Shown piece after piece: positions 2,730 through 57,728 of a stretch of DNA of 64,000 nucleotides. The translations under genes were made by a program, and so were the position numbers. Origin of the DNA: Candidatus Woesebacteria bacterium. GTDB lineage: Bacteria; Patescibacteriota; Microgenomatia; UBA1406; HO2-37-13b. The notes under the pieces are model-generated. The model saw nothing but the letters and a program-made list of their open reading frames with translations. It was not told the origin of the DNA and ran no database searches. Numbering within the stretch: the first letter of the stretch is position 1; each line of letters starts with the position of its first letter. The stretch is from the NCBI GenBank assembly GCA_018062135.1, contig JAGOSW010000001.1, forward strand, positions 73,521-137,520, in the 5' to 3' direction.

Positions 2730-2759
2730 GGGCCCCCTCCGACGTATCGGAGGGGGCCC
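2730..2759 (-). terminator. GC-clamp hairpin terminator downstream of the GC-rich ORF
   Basis: GGGCCCCCTCCGA-cgta-TCGGAGGGGGCCC is a perfect 13-bp stem. On the minus strand it is followed by gctcttttctt. Confidence 0.6.
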
Positions 2760-2785: not shown

Positions 2786-3328
2786 TCACCAAGGTCTGTT
2801 TGTACCGACTTCTGCCAGGAAGATCTTGACGGAATCCTGGGGGACGAGCTGTCCGGCGTATACTCCACGACCATCGGCTGACCTGAAGTACACCAGCAGA
2901 AGCGTCACACCGTCAACTTGGGTCTTGTAGGTTACCCATCGACCCATGATCCCAATTCGATACTCGTTGTTTGGACCAATGATGACGCTGCGACCACCAT
3001 AGTCAATGTCGTATCTGTACAACACGCCATTGTAGGTAAGGTTGTCTGGAATGAGCCCAGTCCACGATGGAGCCGATTCTGGGTCGATTTTCCGCATGAG
3101 GCGAATCTCGTCCAGCTCGCTTTTGCCGCCTTCGCCAAACTCATATCCAAGCCCAAGATAGTCCCATTCCCGTCGAGGCCCCAGTCCATAGATTCGATCA
3201 ATGAGCCTTGCTTCATCATCTTCGTCGAAGACTAATTCGACTTCTGTGATGAACGTCGCTGACTGCTCAGCATGGACGACGGCGACCATGCCTGCGTACC
3301 CATCGGTGATGGGAACATCGATGACCAT
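2786..3328 (-). CDS. Hypothetical protein (180 aa) encoded by a compositionally foreign, GC-rich ORF
   Basis: Long ORF with a GGAG Shine-Dalgarno 10 nt upstream. The sample line 3061-3120 has 35/60 G+C against 21/60 in native line 9421-9480. I recognise no motif. Confidence 0.7.
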   Translation of the reverse strand: MVIDVPITDGYAGMVAVVHAEQSATFITEVELVFDEDDEARLIDRIYGLGPRREWDYLGLGYEFGEGGKSELDEIRLMRKIDPESAPSWTGLIPDNLTYNGVLYRYDIDYGGRSVIIGPNNEYRIGIMGRWVTYKTQVDGVTLLLVYFRSADGRGVYAGQLVPQDSVKIFLAEVGTNRPW

Positions 3329-3384
3329 CTTTTTAGCACTCCAATCTTGTGTAGGTGCGCGCGAACGAAGCCTATATTATACCA
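3329..3384 (-). promoter_or_regulatory. Extended -10 promoter (TGGTATAAT, -10 at 3376-3381) plus about 40-nt leader with GGAG (3339-3342)
   Basis: Read on the minus strand: tttggTATAATataggcttcgttcgcgcgcacctacacaagattGGAGtgctaaaaagATG. Confidence 0.55.
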
Positions 3385-9032: not shown

Positions 9033-9407
9033 TTACTCACCAAAACCTCGGTCGTTGTCCATATCGTTTCCTCCCATGGAATTACCCATGTCAGAGTTGT
9101 TATCATCACGGTTTCCACCGCGATTATCTCCACCTCCGAAACGATTTTCACGAGGTTGTTGAGGTCGTGCATCACTTACGGTGATTGGACGTCCATCAAA
9201 GTCTTGTCCATTAAATTGGTCTTTAGCTTGATTTGCTTCTTCTTCAGAAGACATTTCAACGAAACCAAATCCTTTTGATTTTCCTGTGTATTTATCGGTT
9301 ATGACTGTTGCTGAGACGACTGTTCCTACTTGTGCAAAATGATTTCTCAATGCATCTTCGGTAGTGCCCCAAGAAAGTCCCCCGACGAATAATTTACTTG
9401 CTGCCAT
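9033..9407 (-). CDS. RRM-domain RNA-binding protein with Gly/Asn/Asp-rich tail
   Basis: RNP2 'LFVGGL' and RNP1 'KGFGFVEM'. Confidence 0.9.
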
Positions 9408-9565: not shown

Positions 9566-9607
9566 GAGATCGTCCCCCCGGCTTGTCGCCGGGGGGACGG
9601 TGATCTC
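9566..9607 (-). terminator. Long GC hairpin downstream of the GC-rich 165-aa ORF
   Basis: GAGATC-GTCCCCCCGGC-ttgtc-GCCGGGGGGAC-ggt-GATCTC. Confidence 0.6.
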
Positions 9608-9631
9608 GCACCGAACAGATGGTGGTGGCCG

Positions 9632-10129
9632 TCAGGCCGCCATGGGCGTCGAGTTCGGCAGGAACAACGGCGCGTCCTCGTCCGCGATCACGGCCTCGCT
9701 GTTGACGAAGCAGATGGCGCGACAGGACTCGATCGACGCGGCGCCGATGACTTCGTCCCAGGCCGAGGGCAGTCCGCTGACGCCACACGCCAAACGATGT
9801 CGGAAGACCCCGCCTGAGTACAAGACGTCTCCGTCCATGAGTAGGTGCGGGTAGAACCGCACGAGCTCGCGGGTGTCGCACTGCTCGCGCCAGGCCTCGA
9901 AGGCCTTCTGACGAGCGATCTCGACGTACTCCTTGCCCTCCGGGATCGCGCCGACGGTGACCTCGAAGAGGATGCGCGGCTCGAAGAGGGGCGAGGAAGG
10001 GTCGATCAGGACGACGTGGATGGCCTCCCGGCCTCCGGTCAAGTTGTTGGCCACGAAGCTGTCCAGCAGTGGCTGCGCCACGAGCCGAACGGCCTCCTCG
10101 GCCTGCTCCCTGTACAGGAAATGGGTCAT
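9632..10129 (-). CDS. GC-rich ORF, GlcG/HbpS (DUF336)-like putative haem-binding protein
   Basis: The segment 'GGVFRHRLACGVSGLPSAWDEVIGAASI' resembles the GlcG core 'GG.....GA.GVSG....QD...A'. Line 9661-9720 has 40/60 G+C. Confidence 0.6.
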   Translation of the reverse strand: MTHFLYREQAEEAVRLVAQPLLDSFVANNLTGGREAIHVVLIDPSSPLFEPRILFEVTVGAIPEGKEYVEIARQKAFEAWREQCDTRELVRFYPHLLMDGDVLYSGGVFRHRLACGVSGLPSAWDEVIGAASIESCRAICFVNSEAVIADEDAPLFLPNSTPMAA

Positions 10130-10246
10130 CGGTTTTTGCCTGTGCCTTTCTGTCTAGTGATTGTGAGGTGCGAGAAACAAGCCACTATTATACCTCAAAA
10201 GTTCAAGGAAATCAATATTATAGGACGTGTATGAGCTCAAGGTCAA
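10130..10246 (-). promoter_or_regulatory. Two candidate promoters and a leader for the 165-aa ORF
   Basis: Minus-strand TTGACC (10246-10241), 18 nt, TATAAT (10222-10217). A second GGTATAAT has its -10 at 10192-10187. GAAAGG lies upstream of the ATG. Confidence 0.5.
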
Positions 10247-10340: not shown

Positions 10341-10547
10341 TTAAGGAGTTGCTGAGAATAGAAGTGAGCCGCGGCGGTTGCCTGCCTCAACCTCAGCGCC
10401 AGGGGCATTGAGTCCGGCCTGGGCCGTCTCGACGGCATCGTCGAGCATCTCGTCAGGGTCCGTCAGCGGTTCATTCCCCGCAGCGGAAATTGCGGCAAAG
10501 AGTTCGTCAATCTCTGCTACGATAAGGCGTCTTCTTCGTCCGGGCAT
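10341..10547 (-). CDS. GC-rich ORF, small acidic protein (68 aa)
   Basis: Line 10381-10440 has 42/60 G+C. The product is Asp/Glu/Ala-rich after an N-terminal RRRR. No motif recognised. Confidence 0.5.
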   Translation of the reverse strand: MPGRRRRLIVAEIDELFAAISAAGNEPLTDPDEMLDDAVETAQAGLNAPGAEVEAGNRRGSLLFSATP

Positions 10548-12419: not shown

Positions 12420-12833
12420 TTATTGAAGTGCGTCAAAGTCTGTGAGAATTTCTTCAGCATGTTGATCTGGCGTTACTTTTGGATATTCTTTAACTATATT
12501 GCCTTGCGGGTCAATTAAAAAGCTCTTTCTTTCACCCCAGGCGTTGTACGCCTGGATTGTTGTCTTCTCAGGATCACTCAGTAAAGTAAAAGGAAGCTCA
12601 AATTTATCGGCAAACTTTCTATGCGACGTAACAGTATCTTTTGAAATGCCGACCACCTTTATACCGCGTTTCGCGAATTCGCTCGACATGTCGCGAAACG
12701 CACATGCTTCTTTTGTACAACCGGGAGTGTCGTCTTTTGGATAAAAATAGACGAGGAGCCAAGAACCTGCATAGTCCGAGAGCGTATGGATAACGTTATC
12801 TTGGTCAAGGAGTTCGAAGTTAGGTGCTTTCAC
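12420..12833 (-). CDS. bcp: Thiol peroxidase / peroxiredoxin Bcp
   Basis: 'FYPKDDTPGCTKEAC' peroxidatic Cys motif. Confidence 0.9.
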   Translation of the reverse strand: MKAPNFELLDQDNVIHTLSDYAGSWLLVYFYPKDDTPGCTKEACAFRDMSSEFAKRGIKVVGISKDTVTSHRKFADKFELPFTLLSDPEKTTIQAYNAWGERKSFLIDPQGNIVKEYPKVTPDQHAEEILTDFDALQ

Positions 12834-12862
12834 AAATCTATTATATAATAGACCAACTATTT

Positions 12863-13444
12863 ATGAACACGAGCGAAAAAGCTTTATTTGAAGGTCTTTT
12901 ACGTAGAGATGAGGCTATTTTTAGATCGTTTTATGAAGCAACTCGTGTACCTCTACATAAGTATCTTCAAAAATATTTGGATCAAGATGATGCGGAAGAA
13001 GTTCTCCACGACACGTACATTGCATTTATTGAAGGTCTTCGCAATTTTCGAGGTCAGTCTACGTTAAAAACATACATTTATTCGATTGGAAAACGTAAGG
13101 CGATTGATAAGTTGCGACGCAGAAAAGTTAAAAAAATTCTTTTTGCCTATCTCCCCGACAGTTTTATCGACTCAATTGCGAAGGTTTTTCTTAAAGATGA
13201 TATTGATAAAAAATTTCTCGCGTACCGTATTGAAAAAATACTTAATAGACTTCCGCATGATTATGCACTCATACTAAGACTAAAGTACAAAGAAGACTAT
13301 TCGGTGGTTGAAATTGCGAAAAAAATTAATGTTTCGTTTAAAACTGCTGAAAGTTTGCTTTATCGCGCCCGCAAGGCCTTTATAAAAGAATATAATATCA
13401 ATGAGCGACAAACTGTACTCACAATTAAGGAAGCACTACGATGA
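12863..13444 (+). CDS. ECF-type RNA polymerase sigma factor
   Basis: Sigma region 2 ('DAEEVLHDTYIAF') and region 4 HTH ('YSVVEIAKKINVSFKTAESLLYRARK'). The internal ATG at 12863 is preferred because it avoids overlap with bcp. Confidence 0.85.
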   Translation: MNTSEKALFEGLLRRDEAIFRSFYEATRVPLHKYLQKYLDQDDAEEVLHDTYIAFIEGLRNFRGQSTLKTYIYSIGKRKAIDKLRRRKVKKILFAYLPDSFIDSIAKVFLKDDIDKKFLAYRIEKILNRLPHDYALILRLKYKEDYSVVEIAKKINVSFKTAESLLYRARKAFIKEYNINERQTVLTIKEALR

Positions 13445-19145: not shown

Positions 19146-20915
19146 ATGAAATTTAAAGAACTTGCTGAATACTTTCACAAAATAGAACAAACTGCTTCGC
19201 GTAACGAAATGACGCAGATTCTTGCGGATCTATTTAATGAAATCCAGGTGGATGAGTTTGATAAGGTACTCTATTTGCTTCAAGGGAGACTCGCCCCACA
19301 ATATGTAAAAATCGATTTTGGGTTGGGAGAGAAAATGGTTGTAAGGGCGGCTACTGAAGCGCTGCAGCTTGATAAGAAGCTCTTTTTTGAGAGGTTTCAA
19401 CGGGAGGGCGATGCAGGTCGGGCTGTTGAGTATTTTAAAAAGACTATTGTCAGCATGCATGAGCGCGACATGACAATTACAGAAGTGTTTAACAAGTTAG
19501 AGGAATTAGCGAAATCAGGGGGCGAAGGTTCGCAAGAAAGAAAACTATCGATTTTAGCGGAGCTTATTCAAACCCTTGATGGACTGTCCGCAAGATTTGT
19601 CGTACGCATACCAACAAATACACTACGATTAGGCTTCTCTGATATGACAATTCTTGATGCATTTTCATGGATGTTAAAGGGAGATAAAAGCCTCCGGCCG
19701 GCAATTGAAGCGGCTTACCTGGTGCGGCCGGACCTCGGTTATATTGGCGTTACGCTAAAGAAAAGCGGCGAAAAAGGCGTAACGCATGTGACGCCGACTG
19801 TATTTACTCCTATTTTAATGATGCGCGCGCAGCGCGTCGGCGTTATTGACGAAATTTTCGACAAAATACAAGATGGCCTTGTGGAGCCAAAATATGATGG
19901 TTTTCGTCTACAAATTCATAAAAAAGGCGAAAAGGTAACACTTTTTTCGCGCGGACTTGAAGATGTGACATATATGTATCCCGATATTGTAGCGGGGATT
20001 CAAAAAGAAATAAAAGCGGACGCTGCGATTATCGAAGGTGAAGCCATTGGCTTCGATCCCTATACAGGCAGTTTTCTTCCCTTTCAAGAAACGGTCCAAC
20101 GTAAACGAAAATATAATATTGATGAAAAAGCGCTCGAAATCCCTTTACGTATGTTTGTCTTCGAGCTCCTCCATTGCGACGGCGATTCTCTTCTTACAGA
20201 ACCGCTTCATGTGCGGCTAGATAAGCTTCGATCCATCACAAAATTAACAGGAGACATATTCAAAGACACACTAATTCTCTCGATACAGGACATTTTAAAT
20301 GATAAAGAACATCTGGAAATAACTTTTGACGATGCGCTTTCTAAAGGTCTTGAAGGCCTCATGATTAAAAAAAGCGACGGTCTTTATAAGCCAGGCGCTC
20401 GCGGATTTAACTGGATTAAATATAAGCGAAGCCAATCGACAAAAATTGATGACACGATTGATTGCGTCGTAATGGGTTATGACAAGGGAAAAGGAAAGCG
20501 CACAGGATTTGGCATTGGCGCATTTTTGGTAGGTATTTATGATAAAAAAAAGGATATGTTTGAAACAGTCGCAAAAATAGGTACAGGTCTTTCTGACGAT
20601 GAATGGCGAGAAATGCATGAACGATGCAGTAAAATTATCAGCGATCATAAACCCGCTCTATATGATGTTGATACAATGATGAATGTTGATGTGTGGGTTC
20701 TTCCAAACATTGTCGTAGAAATTAAAGCAGATGAAATTACTCGCTCATCAGTTCATACTGCGGGTCGCTTATTAAAAGAATCAAAATCAGGAAAAGCATT
20801 TGATGTTGATGAACCTGGGTATGCTCTACGTTTTCCTCGACTCACACGTTTTCGCGATGATAAAAAACCTGAGGATGCCACCACAATTAAAGAAGTCAAA
20901 GAATTAGTCCGTTAG
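19146..20915 (+). CDS. ATP-dependent DNA ligase, three-domain Lig1/archaeal-like
   Basis: Adenylation motif I 'EPKYDGFRLQIH', plus an N-terminal DNA-binding domain and a C-terminal OB domain ('RFPRLTRFRDDK'). Confidence 0.9.
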   Translation: MKFKELAEYFHKIEQTASRNEMTQILADLFNEIQVDEFDKVLYLLQGRLAPQYVKIDFGLGEKMVVRAATEALQLDKKLFFERFQREGDAGRAVEYFKKTIVSMHERDMTITEVFNKLEELAKSGGEGSQERKLSILAELIQTLDGLSARFVVRIPTNTLRLGFSDMTILDAFSWMLKGDKSLRPAIEAAYLVRPDLGYIGVTLKKSGEKGVTHVTPTVFTPILMMRAQRVGVIDEIFDKIQDGLVEPKYDGFRLQIHKKGEKVTLFSRGLEDVTYMYPDIVAGIQKEIKADAAIIEGEAIGFDPYTGSFLPFQETVQRKRKYNIDEKALEIPLRMFVFELLHCDGDSLLTEPLHVRLDKLRSITKLTGDIFKDTLILSIQDILNDKEHLEITFDDALSKGLEGLMIKKSDGLYKPGARGFNWIKYKRSQSTKIDDTIDCVVMGYDKGKGKRTGFGIGAFLVGIYDKKKDMFETVAKIGTGLSDDEWREMHERCSKIISDHKPALYDVDTMMNVDVWVLPNIVVEIKADEITRSSVHTAGRLLKESKSGKAFDVDEPGYALRFPRLTRFRDDKKPEDATTIKEVKELVR

Positions 20916-56282: not shown

Positions 56283-57728
56283 ATGTCAAAGCAATACAGA
56301 CCACCAGTTGTTGTCGTATTAGGCCATGTTGATCATGGAAAGACGACTTTGCTCGACTATATCCGCAAAACAACAGTAACAGCACGCGAAGCGGGCGGCA
56401 TTACCCAGTCTATTGGTGCGTACGAGGCAGAAACAGCGATTAAAGGCTACCATACAAACAAAATTACCTTCATTGATACTCCAGGCCATGAGGCCTTCAC
56501 AAAGCTCCGCATGCGCGGCGCGCAGGCAGCAGATATCGCTATTCTGATCGTTGACGCAACTTCTTCTGTAATGCCGCAGACAATTGAGTCAATAACGCAT
56601 ATTCAACAAGCTGAAATCCCATTTATCGTCGCCATGAATAAAATTGACCTGCAAACGGCGAATTCTTCGCGCGTAAAGCAGGACCTCGCAAAGCATGGCG
56701 TTCAGGTAGAAGGTTTTGGCGGAACAGTCACAGAAGTCGAAATATCCGCAAAAACAGGCGCAGGAATTAACGATTTATTAGAAGGTGTCTTATACATAGC
56801 CTCAGAAAAGAATCTTACATATGATGACGCTGCAGATCTCGACGCTTTTGTTATAGAAACCCGCCAAGAAAAATCAGGCATAACGGCCTCATGTATCATA
56901 AAAAATGGTGTGCTTCGTGTTGGCGAAACCGTATATGCAGGTTCAAAAGAAGCAAAAATTAGATCACTCATGTCAGACAAAGGTGCACTTGTTAAAGAAG
57001 TCCGACCTTCAATGCCATTTATATTGTCTGGGTTTAAAGAAACACCAGATGTCGGTGTTCTTCTCTCGCGAGTACGTCCTGAACATGTAGATGAAGTAAA
57101 AGAAGCAGCGGTTGATCATGATTTTGCTGGTTTTTTTGAAGAAGAAGGAAAGAAGCTTCATCTCATTATTAAGGCTGATTCTCAAGGTGTTCTCGATGCC
57201 CTACTTCCAAGTCTTGAAAAAAGTGAGTCTATAAATATTGTTTTCTCAGGAATTGGCGATCTTACAAACTCCGACGTATTTTTAGCTAAGGTTTCTAAGG
57301 CGGTGGTCATAGGATTTAATGTAAAACCGACGAAGCAAATCGAGTATGTTGCGCGTCAAGAAAAGGTAGTCATAAAGACCTATAATATAATCTATAAACT
57401 CTTAGAAGAGCTTCATGAGGTTTCAGATTTACTTAAAGAGCGTGAGGACAAGGAAAAGTCCTTCAAAGGTGAGGCAAAAATTACTACCATCTTTACTATT
57501 GATGGAAGTAAAATCGCAGGCGTTAAAGTCATTAAAGGCCGTCTTGACGTGCACGATCGCGTTGAGGTCTTCAGAGAAAATCGTTCACAAGGAGAATCCG
57601 TACTCACTACCATTAAACAGCGCGCCAAGACAGTCAAAGAAGTAAAGAAAGATGATGAGGCTGGGCTCCTTTTTGACCCCCAACTTGACATAATGCAGGG
57701 TGATGTGATAAAATCTTATAGTATATGA
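56283..57728 (+). CDS. infB: Translation initiation factor IF-2, short form starting at the G domain
   Basis: '[20 protein letters not shown]', 'DTPGHEAF' and 'NKID'. Confidence 0.95.

Follow-up and report, generated by a model that had tools for sequence, protein, structure and literature searches.

The window analysed here, a stretch of 64,000 nucleotides with a GC content of 39.7%, has an ordinary chromosomal gene content, which includes UDG, queA, a PMT-like membrane protein, a fatty-acid desaturase, an RRM protein (9033-9407), msrB, mgtE, an ECF sigma factor (12824-13444), LeuRS, a short IF-2, and an ATP-dependent DNA ligase. Uncultured MAGs, including Saccharimonadales, Peregrinibacteria, and WWE3, supply the closest relatives of the proteins. 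The ATP-dependent DNA ligase and the short (481-aa) IF-2, located at 19146-20915 and 56283-57728, fit a CPR/Patescibacteria-like genome, and a small genome of this kind is likely. Two small GC-rich genes are set among these genes. The gene for a protein of 180 aa, labelled cas1, has UDG on one side and queA on the other, and the gene for a protein of 165 aa, labelled cas2, is in the RRM-msrB spacer. A truncated GC-rich mini-ORF is labelled cas3. The gene arrangement recurs in independent assemblies (L001-L013), and therefore the arrangement of cas1 and cas2 is not a chimera. The two loci are composed of the following features:

2730..2759, minus strand: terminator-like hairpin of cas1, 13 bp with 11 G-C pairs, followed by GCTCTTTTCT
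2786..3328, minus strand: cas1 ORF, 180 aa, GC 53%, GC3 0.58, from a hypervariable family confined to the clade
3347..3383, minus strand: cas1 promoter-leader block (34.8 bits), with a sigma-70-like promoter (TGGTATAAT) whose -10 box TATAAT at 3381-3376 is preceded by TGG (extended -10); after the -10 box come GCTTCGTTCG, the invariant CGCACCT at 3359-3353, and ACACA
9571..9599, minus strand: terminator-like hairpin of cas2, with compensatory changes between strains in the upper stem and a basal stem GAGATC/GATCTC
9604..9612, minus strand: GGTGCGAGA (GGUGCGAGA) in the cas2 3'UTR, exact complement of the leader core, invariant in four genomes
9632..10129, minus strand: cas2 ORF, 165 aa, GC 66%, GC3 0.89, a distant, sub-threshold HbpS/GlcG-like relative
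10161..10194, minus strand: cas2 promoter-leader block (33.6 bits), with -35 box TTGATT, a 17-nt spacer, and -10 box TATAAT at 10192-10187; after the -10 box come GGCTTGTTTCT, the invariant CGCACCT at 10172-10166, and CACAA
10217..10246, minus strand: second, upstream sigma-70-like promoter of cas2 (TTGACC, 18-nt spacer, TATAAT)
10341..10547, minus strand: cas3, a small GC-rich cassette in decay that is located upstream of cas2 and does not carry the shared motif

The sequence-only reading had placed the block upstream of a 180-aa and a 165-aa GC-rich ORF, and the ORFs are as it described them (53% and 66% GC). Both are genuine coding genes. The ten cas1 and cas2 alleles checked (the two of the window and those of L014, L207, L212, L265, L007, L008, L161, and L296) all have a GC3 of 0.58-0.89, compared to 0.27-0.41 in 19 native genes. 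The dN/dS of the ORF alleles is 0.19-0.5, with 0.93 in the most diverged pair. The cas1 alleles are 30-66% identical, with dN/dS of 0.23-0.35, and the cas2 alleles have an excess of substitutions at third positions and zero indels among within-species alleles. The possibility that the GC-rich regions are non-coding RNAs was rejected because of the frame-specific GC3, the dN/dS below 1 in both families, and, for cas2, the third-position excess; the ORFs are preserved across alleles. All alleles stay GC-rich in an AT-rich genome with a GC3 of ~0.35, though they are mutually saturated at synonymous sites. This persistent GC-richness could result from repeated import, biased gene conversion at a recombination hotspot, or selection.

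The cas1 and cas2 proteins have no detectable relatedness to each other (BLASTP E 3.8; hhalign probability 0.2%), in agreement with the earlier remark that the two coding regions are not visibly related. Neither has a significant match in sequence searches of Pfam, NCBIfam, PADLOC, PHROGs, and PDB. Among 5.8 billion proteins, the cas1 family has no relatives beyond the clade, also when searched with a five-allele profile, and no outside donor family is detectable. For the cas2 family, 1.8 billion representatives include 360 distant relatives (E ≤ 1e-3), some of them on CPR-like-looking contigs of about 50-54% GC. The cas2 protein of the window does not match the HbpS/GlcG-like family PF03928 in Pfam, as the gathering cut-off of 25 bits is not reached; 9 of the 41 cas2 family members match PF03928 below the threshold (best E 1.2e-4, 17.7 bits). 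The AlphaFold2 models, built from shallow alignments, are of low confidence, with pLDDT of 44 and 47. A phage origin was rejected, because zero relatives were found in viral contigs and the motif matches there are due to chance. Mutagenesis of the DGR type was rejected as well, because by eye the substitutions among alleles do not look adenine-specific.

On the minus strand, the sequence of 3383-3347 is GGTATAATATAGGCTTCGTTCGCGCGCACCTACACAA, and that of 10194-10161 is GGTATAATAGTGGCTT-GTT-TCTCGCACCT-CACAA. Local alignment of the full upstream regions on the minus strand matches the two blocks with 30 identities, 4 mismatches, and 3 gaps, at a score of 33; an alignment by hand had given 29 identities and 3 gaps. 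The sequence-only reading had proposed shuffled intergenic controls. The score exceeds those of all controls: the maximum is 30 among 2000 shuffles of the two upstream regions (mean 15.7, sd 2.2) and 27 among about 1200-2400 tiles of the rest of the window. Because the -10 box makes up part of the match, the leader was also scored without TATAAT. The 26-29 nt past TATAAT score 17, which is reached by 3 of 20,000 shuffles. The window has 65 other TATAAT sites, and their maximum is 9. The matches extend past the generic -10 box, as had been claimed. Since the leader-only score beats all of the other TATAAT sites and nearly all of the shuffles, the similarity is real and is not a local promoter consensus. 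A fuzzy search of the window found the motif at no further site, which bears out the earlier observation that it is not positioned upstream of native genes of the window. The similarity of the two blocks is non-random and specific to the two GC-rich ORFs. Behind each ORF is a GC-rich hairpin with a T/C-rich tail, and the similarity between the 3' flanks of cas1 and cas2 is not significant (p about 0.04-0.06). The basal stem GAGATC/GATCTC of the cas2 terminator covaries to GAGACC/GGTCTC in L296.

Eight distinct leaders define the form of the motif as GCTT(C)GTT, 3-6 nt, CGCACCT. The CGCACCT part is invariant in 8/8 leaders and the GCTT(C)GTT part is nearly invariant. The spacer between the half-motifs is 3-6 nt long, the distance from the -10 box is 14-18 nt, and the motif is without dyad symmetry. 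In strain L008, the GGCTT part is replaced and CGCACCT is kept.

Three or four related species retain the block. The related MAG CAZTOA01 (loci L014, L161, and L300; QueA 88% identical) carries both the cas1 and cas2 loci. The queA-cas1 intergenic promoter and leader, up to ...GCGCACCTACACA, are about 4% different between the window and L014. The synonymous sites of queA and UDG in the same comparison have a pS of about 0.5 and dS of 0.78-0.90 (0.90 for queA), and the cas1 proteins are only 44% identical. The cas1 block is kept in L014, L207, L212, and L265/L291. Upstream of cas2, a three-species alignment (window, L161, and L296) has the invariant blocks TCCTATAATATTGA, which is located at the second promoter, GTATAAT, and GTTTCTCGCACCT. 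The last of these exceeds the other invariant blocks upstream of the 165-aa gene in length and has diverged sequence on both sides, and the sequence between the -35 and -10 boxes of cas2 is far less conserved than the leader. A scan of metagenomes yielded additional cas1 alleles (L207, L212, and L265/L266, the last being protein P0004), with 6 real matches among the 120 metagenome matches listed. All the leaders of these alleles have the form TATAAT-N3-GCTTCGTTCG-(1-5 nt)-CGCACCTACACAGA. In L291-L295, the cas1 unit is placed between a PQ-loop gene and VIT1, with its promoter and leader unchanged.

A sequence-only model of the eight leaders (R1) was searched over the window and 15 clade loci, 176 kb in total. 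It identifies only the cas1 and cas2 sites, at 26.7-34.8 bits. The next-best match, of 7 bits, is just another TATAAT, leaving a 20-bit gap to the noise. The search with a model, which had been suggested together with the original observation, thus returned two locus types in 176 kb and no ordinary AT-rich genes. A scan with a 20-base pattern of one genome per species in 185,579 species found the CAZTOA01 MAG (L014/L161) and one chance match in Moraxella, and a search of genome contigs with a narrower alignment found the known MAG only. The database scans add only orthologues of the cas1 and cas2 loci (for metagenomes, among the matches listed). No third type of motif-bearing locus was found in the window, the 176 kb of clade DNA, the genome contigs, or among the metagenome matches listed. 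As judged from these comparisons, the block is shown to be under purifying selection. Because the block extends beyond the -10 box and is evolutionarily constrained, its interpretation as a dedicated element, and not a local promoter consensus, is supported.

The leaders do not resemble a structured RNA, which the sequence-only reading had offered as one option. Neither leader has a meaningful Rfam match at gathering and E-value thresholds, even with E up to 5, and the sole Rfam match in the window is a tRNA elsewhere. The folds of the eight leaders are no stabler than those of shuffled sequences (z -2.0 to +3.3, mostly positive) and share no common helix. The rest of the window has no complementary partner of the leader, and no candidate regulator was identified among the 10 large ORFs of the window. 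ECF-sigma promoters, boxA, ops, Chi, and uptake sequences were considered and rejected by eye, as their sequences or spacings do not fit.

Comparative data indicate that the fixed AT-rich promoter-leader fronts an exchangeable GC-rich segment comprising the Shine-Dalgarno sequence, the ORF, and the hairpin. The GC-rich segment has diverged disproportionately compared to its flanks, and incongruently with them. Between the window and L207, UDG has a dS of 0.23 and 98% amino-acid identity, whereas cas1 has a dS of 2.05 and 44% identity, and the L207 cas1 allele is nearer to that of the more distant L014 (66%) than to that of the window. In the RRM gene, L161 (dS 0.24) is nearer to the window than L296 (dS 0.46), and the identities of the cas2 proteins to that of the window, 29% for L161 and 51% for L296, are in the reverse order. 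In L007, from the same species, the flanks are identical to those of the window and the cas2 ORF is 78% identical, with divergence beginning about 115 nt into the ORF. The cas1 hairpin is swapped between strains along with the ORF: in L207 and L212 the terminator hairpin is replaced too, and homology resumes directly past it. This incongruence between flanks and alleles indicates that the alleles were exchanged by recombination in a unit that is essentially the GC-rich segment. Allele replacement is shown by these comparisons. The 5' boundaries of divergence vary by allele pair: one pair diverges past CACA, another past GGAGCTT. Such boundaries are no proof of a site-specific mechanism, because homologous recombination in conserved flanks gives the same boundaries and because they vary.

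Other GC-rich inserts occur in the clade. The cas3 cassette carries a promoter and a hairpin of its own; 72 nt are missing from the window copy, among them half of the hairpin. The corresponding regions are L005 400-790, L007 1-330, and L161 240-560; an internal deletion is present in L003 and L004, and the whole unit is absent in L005. In a strain of the same species (L003 6735-7952), a GC-rich M42 peptidase gene (61% GC, GC3 0.76) is located beside the fatty-acid desaturase gene; it is absent from the window at that place, and the L003 copy is without the shared leader motif. The spacer between the RRM gene and msrB is a variable hotspot, in which related species carry other ORFs in the opposite orientation (L081 4700-5800, L291 1-700, and L296 2918-3781): those of 253 and 289 aa are GC-rich, and one of 287 aa is AT-rich. 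Nested inverted repeats (AAGTGACCG..CACCTATT..AATAGGTG..CGGTCACTT) precede the GC-rich spacer ORFs. According to the R1 model, the motif is absent from three other GC-rich inserts of the clade, namely cas3, the L003 M42 peptidase gene, and the 253/289-aa ORFs (L081/L291), and therefore the motif does not mark a site where foreign ORFs are captured in general, an option raised in the sequence-only reading. A recombination site, another earlier proposal, is weakened as well: no integrase was seen among the genes examined and no attC-like site at the loci, and the boundaries fit ordinary homologous recombination. What stands of the dedicated expression or regulatory cassette put forward in the sequence-only reading is a dedicated, specific, and constrained element, but not a structured RNA or a general capture site.

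It is likely that the block is a functional, selected element. The preferred interpretation, with a probability of about 0.55, is that it constitutes a lineage-specific cis-regulatory element common to two unlinked accessory genes, either an operator or a 5'-UTR motif. The block would be located within the first roughly 25 transcribed nucleotides, directly downstream of the sigma-70-type -10 box, given the predicted transcription start. There it would place cas1 and cas2 under common control, by way of a putative factor that reads it. A protein may bind the block as DNA, which would make it an operator that overlaps the transcription start, or a factor may recognise it as a single-stranded linear motif of the 5'-UTR. 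The flexible spacing (3-6 nt and 14-18 nt) is unusual for a dimeric operator, and, together with the lack of symmetry, it makes the evidence lean slightly towards single-stranded recognition in the 5'-UTR. The two copies probably originated from the duplication of one promoter-leader module. Behind the fixed AT-rich platform, the GC-rich segment with its Shine-Dalgarno sequence, ORF, and hairpin evolves fast and is replaced between lineages via recombination in the conserved flanks. With only two locus types, the regulon would be a thin one.

Several other explanations of the block were weighed. It is rather unlikely that the block is the 5' partner of an interaction between the 5' and 3' ends of the mRNA that controls stability, termination, or translation, although part of the evidence from cas2 fits this. 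The leader core TCTCGCACC (UCUCGCACC, 10168-10176) pairs with the cas2 3'UTR in the window, L008, L161, and L296, where its 3' partner overlaps the terminator's basal stem. The duplex is far stabler than those of shuffled leaders (-29.5 kcal/mol compared to -15.5±2.7, 0/500) and beats the shuffles in all four genomes (p 0 to 0.02). However, none of the 5 cas1 alleles has an inverted copy or pairing (p 0.23-0.95), and therefore the pairing cannot be the shared function. There is also no covariation in the cas2 pairing, because both partners are invariant. A 9-mer inverted repeat without restriction on its position in 780 nt is at chance level. The inverted repeat of leader and 3'UTR was rejected as a shared feature, since it is significant and conserved at cas2 only and absent at cas1. 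Doubtful as well is the idea that the block is the fixed edge of an exchange platform, in which GC-rich modules of ORF and terminator are swapped in behind the resident promoter-leader. The leader, and likewise the 9-nt inverted copy in the cas2 3'UTR, would then be an anchor of recombination or homology, in an integron-like arrangement without an integrase. Such a platform would account for allele divergence that starts just past the leader (CGCACCT/CACA) or the Shine-Dalgarno sequence and ends at the terminator hairpin or stop codon, for allele trees incongruent with the flanks, for the presence of one leader at two such loci, and for the invariant pair TCTCGCACC / GGTGCGAGA that brackets cas2. 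Yet ordinary homologous recombination is expected to leave boundaries at the edges of non-homology, the 5' breakpoints vary between allele pairs, cas1 is without the inverted copy, and the other GC-rich inserts of the clade are without the motif. In addition, Pfam identifies no recombinase among the 10 large window ORFs, and no empty or inverted site was found at the loci compared. A fuller version, in which the block is the resident half of an exchange-and-expression platform whose GC-rich modules of Shine-Dalgarno sequence, ORF, and hairpin are repeatedly replaced, also across species, is improbable. It adds that the exchange might proceed, for example, by natural transformation and recombination, that the leader (and at cas2 also the inverted 9-mer) would set the module boundary, and that a biased process or repeated import would hold the modules at GC3 of 0.6-0.9 in a genome of about 0.35.

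The block may also be a relic of common descent, a promoter-leader that was duplicated or gene-converted and today serves as nothing more than a promoter. The shortness of the similarity, which covers about 37-42 nt including the -10 box, is compatible with this, and only the front end would have been copied, because the cas1 and cas2 proteins are unrelated. The explanation is nevertheless unlikely, since an unconstrained copy should decay: neighbouring synonymous sites are ~50% different between species while the block is nearly invariant, and at cas2 conservation is much lower in the interval between the -35 and -10 boxes than in the leader. A chance likeness of two strong promoters is very improbable. 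The sequence GGTATAAT accounts for 8 of the 30 matches and the pair was picked post hoc, but the leader-only similarity has a p of about 1.5e-4 by shuffling, none of the 65 TATAAT controls reaches its score, and both copies are independently conserved in other species.

To our knowledge, CPR/Patescibacteria-like bacteria are uncultured and almost nothing is known about their gene regulation. A conserved, specific leader motif provides a handle for seeking a regulator or an RNA-binding factor, and it may be used to define transcription starts in metatranscriptomes. A lineage-restricted, hypervariable, and exchanged pattern with atypical GC usually marks genes of conflict or interaction. Because cas1 and cas2 have this pattern, the proposed cis-regulatory motif may flag a small regulon of host or phage interaction. 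If the block were part of an exchange platform, it would represent a new integrase-free cassette system and a new route of gene exchange.

The arrangement of the cas1 and cas2 loci can be compared to those of several known systems. In its logic, the block comes closest to two of them, the unstructured leader of the JUMPstart/ops type and the regulon operator. The integron platform, with its Pc promoter, attI, and attC cassettes, similarly combines a fixed expression platform with exchangeable ORFs of foreign composition. However, no tyrosine-recombinase integrase with an attI was seen among the flanking genes or the 10 large window ORFs, and by eye there is no attC-like site with a GTTRRRY core at the 3' ends of the ORFs. 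The hairpins there are perfect GC-rich, terminator-like stems of 12-13 bp with a T/C tract behind them. Each site comprises a single ORF and its own promoter, and the exchange is explained by homologous recombination. Because no attC site and no integrase were found in the genes examined, the block does not appear to belong to an integron cassette. The cps and O-antigen hypervariable loci share the conserved flanks, deeply diverged alleles, incongruent allele phylogeny, and atypical GC, but cas1 and cas2 are single genes for small, cytoplasmic-looking proteins and are GC-rich, not AT-rich. Like regulon operators such as the LexA and Fur boxes, the block is a short motif at or just past the -10/+1 positions of unlinked genes, conserved across species and absent from the other promoters searched; unlike them, it has no dyad symmetry, a variable internal spacing, and only two known target loci. 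JUMPstart/ops sequences are leader elements of RfaH-dependent operons in Enterobacteria, with the ops consensus GGCGGTAGnnTG, and the gene sets behind them, for example O-antigen and capsule loci, are swapped by recombination in conserved flanks. The block resembles them as a short, unstructured, conserved sequence in a predicted transcribed leader that is common to unlinked, horizontally exchanged genes of atypical composition. It differs in that its sequence is unrelated to ops, which is absent from the leaders, and in that it precedes single small GC-rich ORFs in an AT-rich CPR-like genome, with no NusG paralogue identified among the genes examined. On present comparisons, the block appears to sit outside the JUMPstart/ops and operator families and would be best filed in the broad class of promoter-proximal cis-regulatory motifs.
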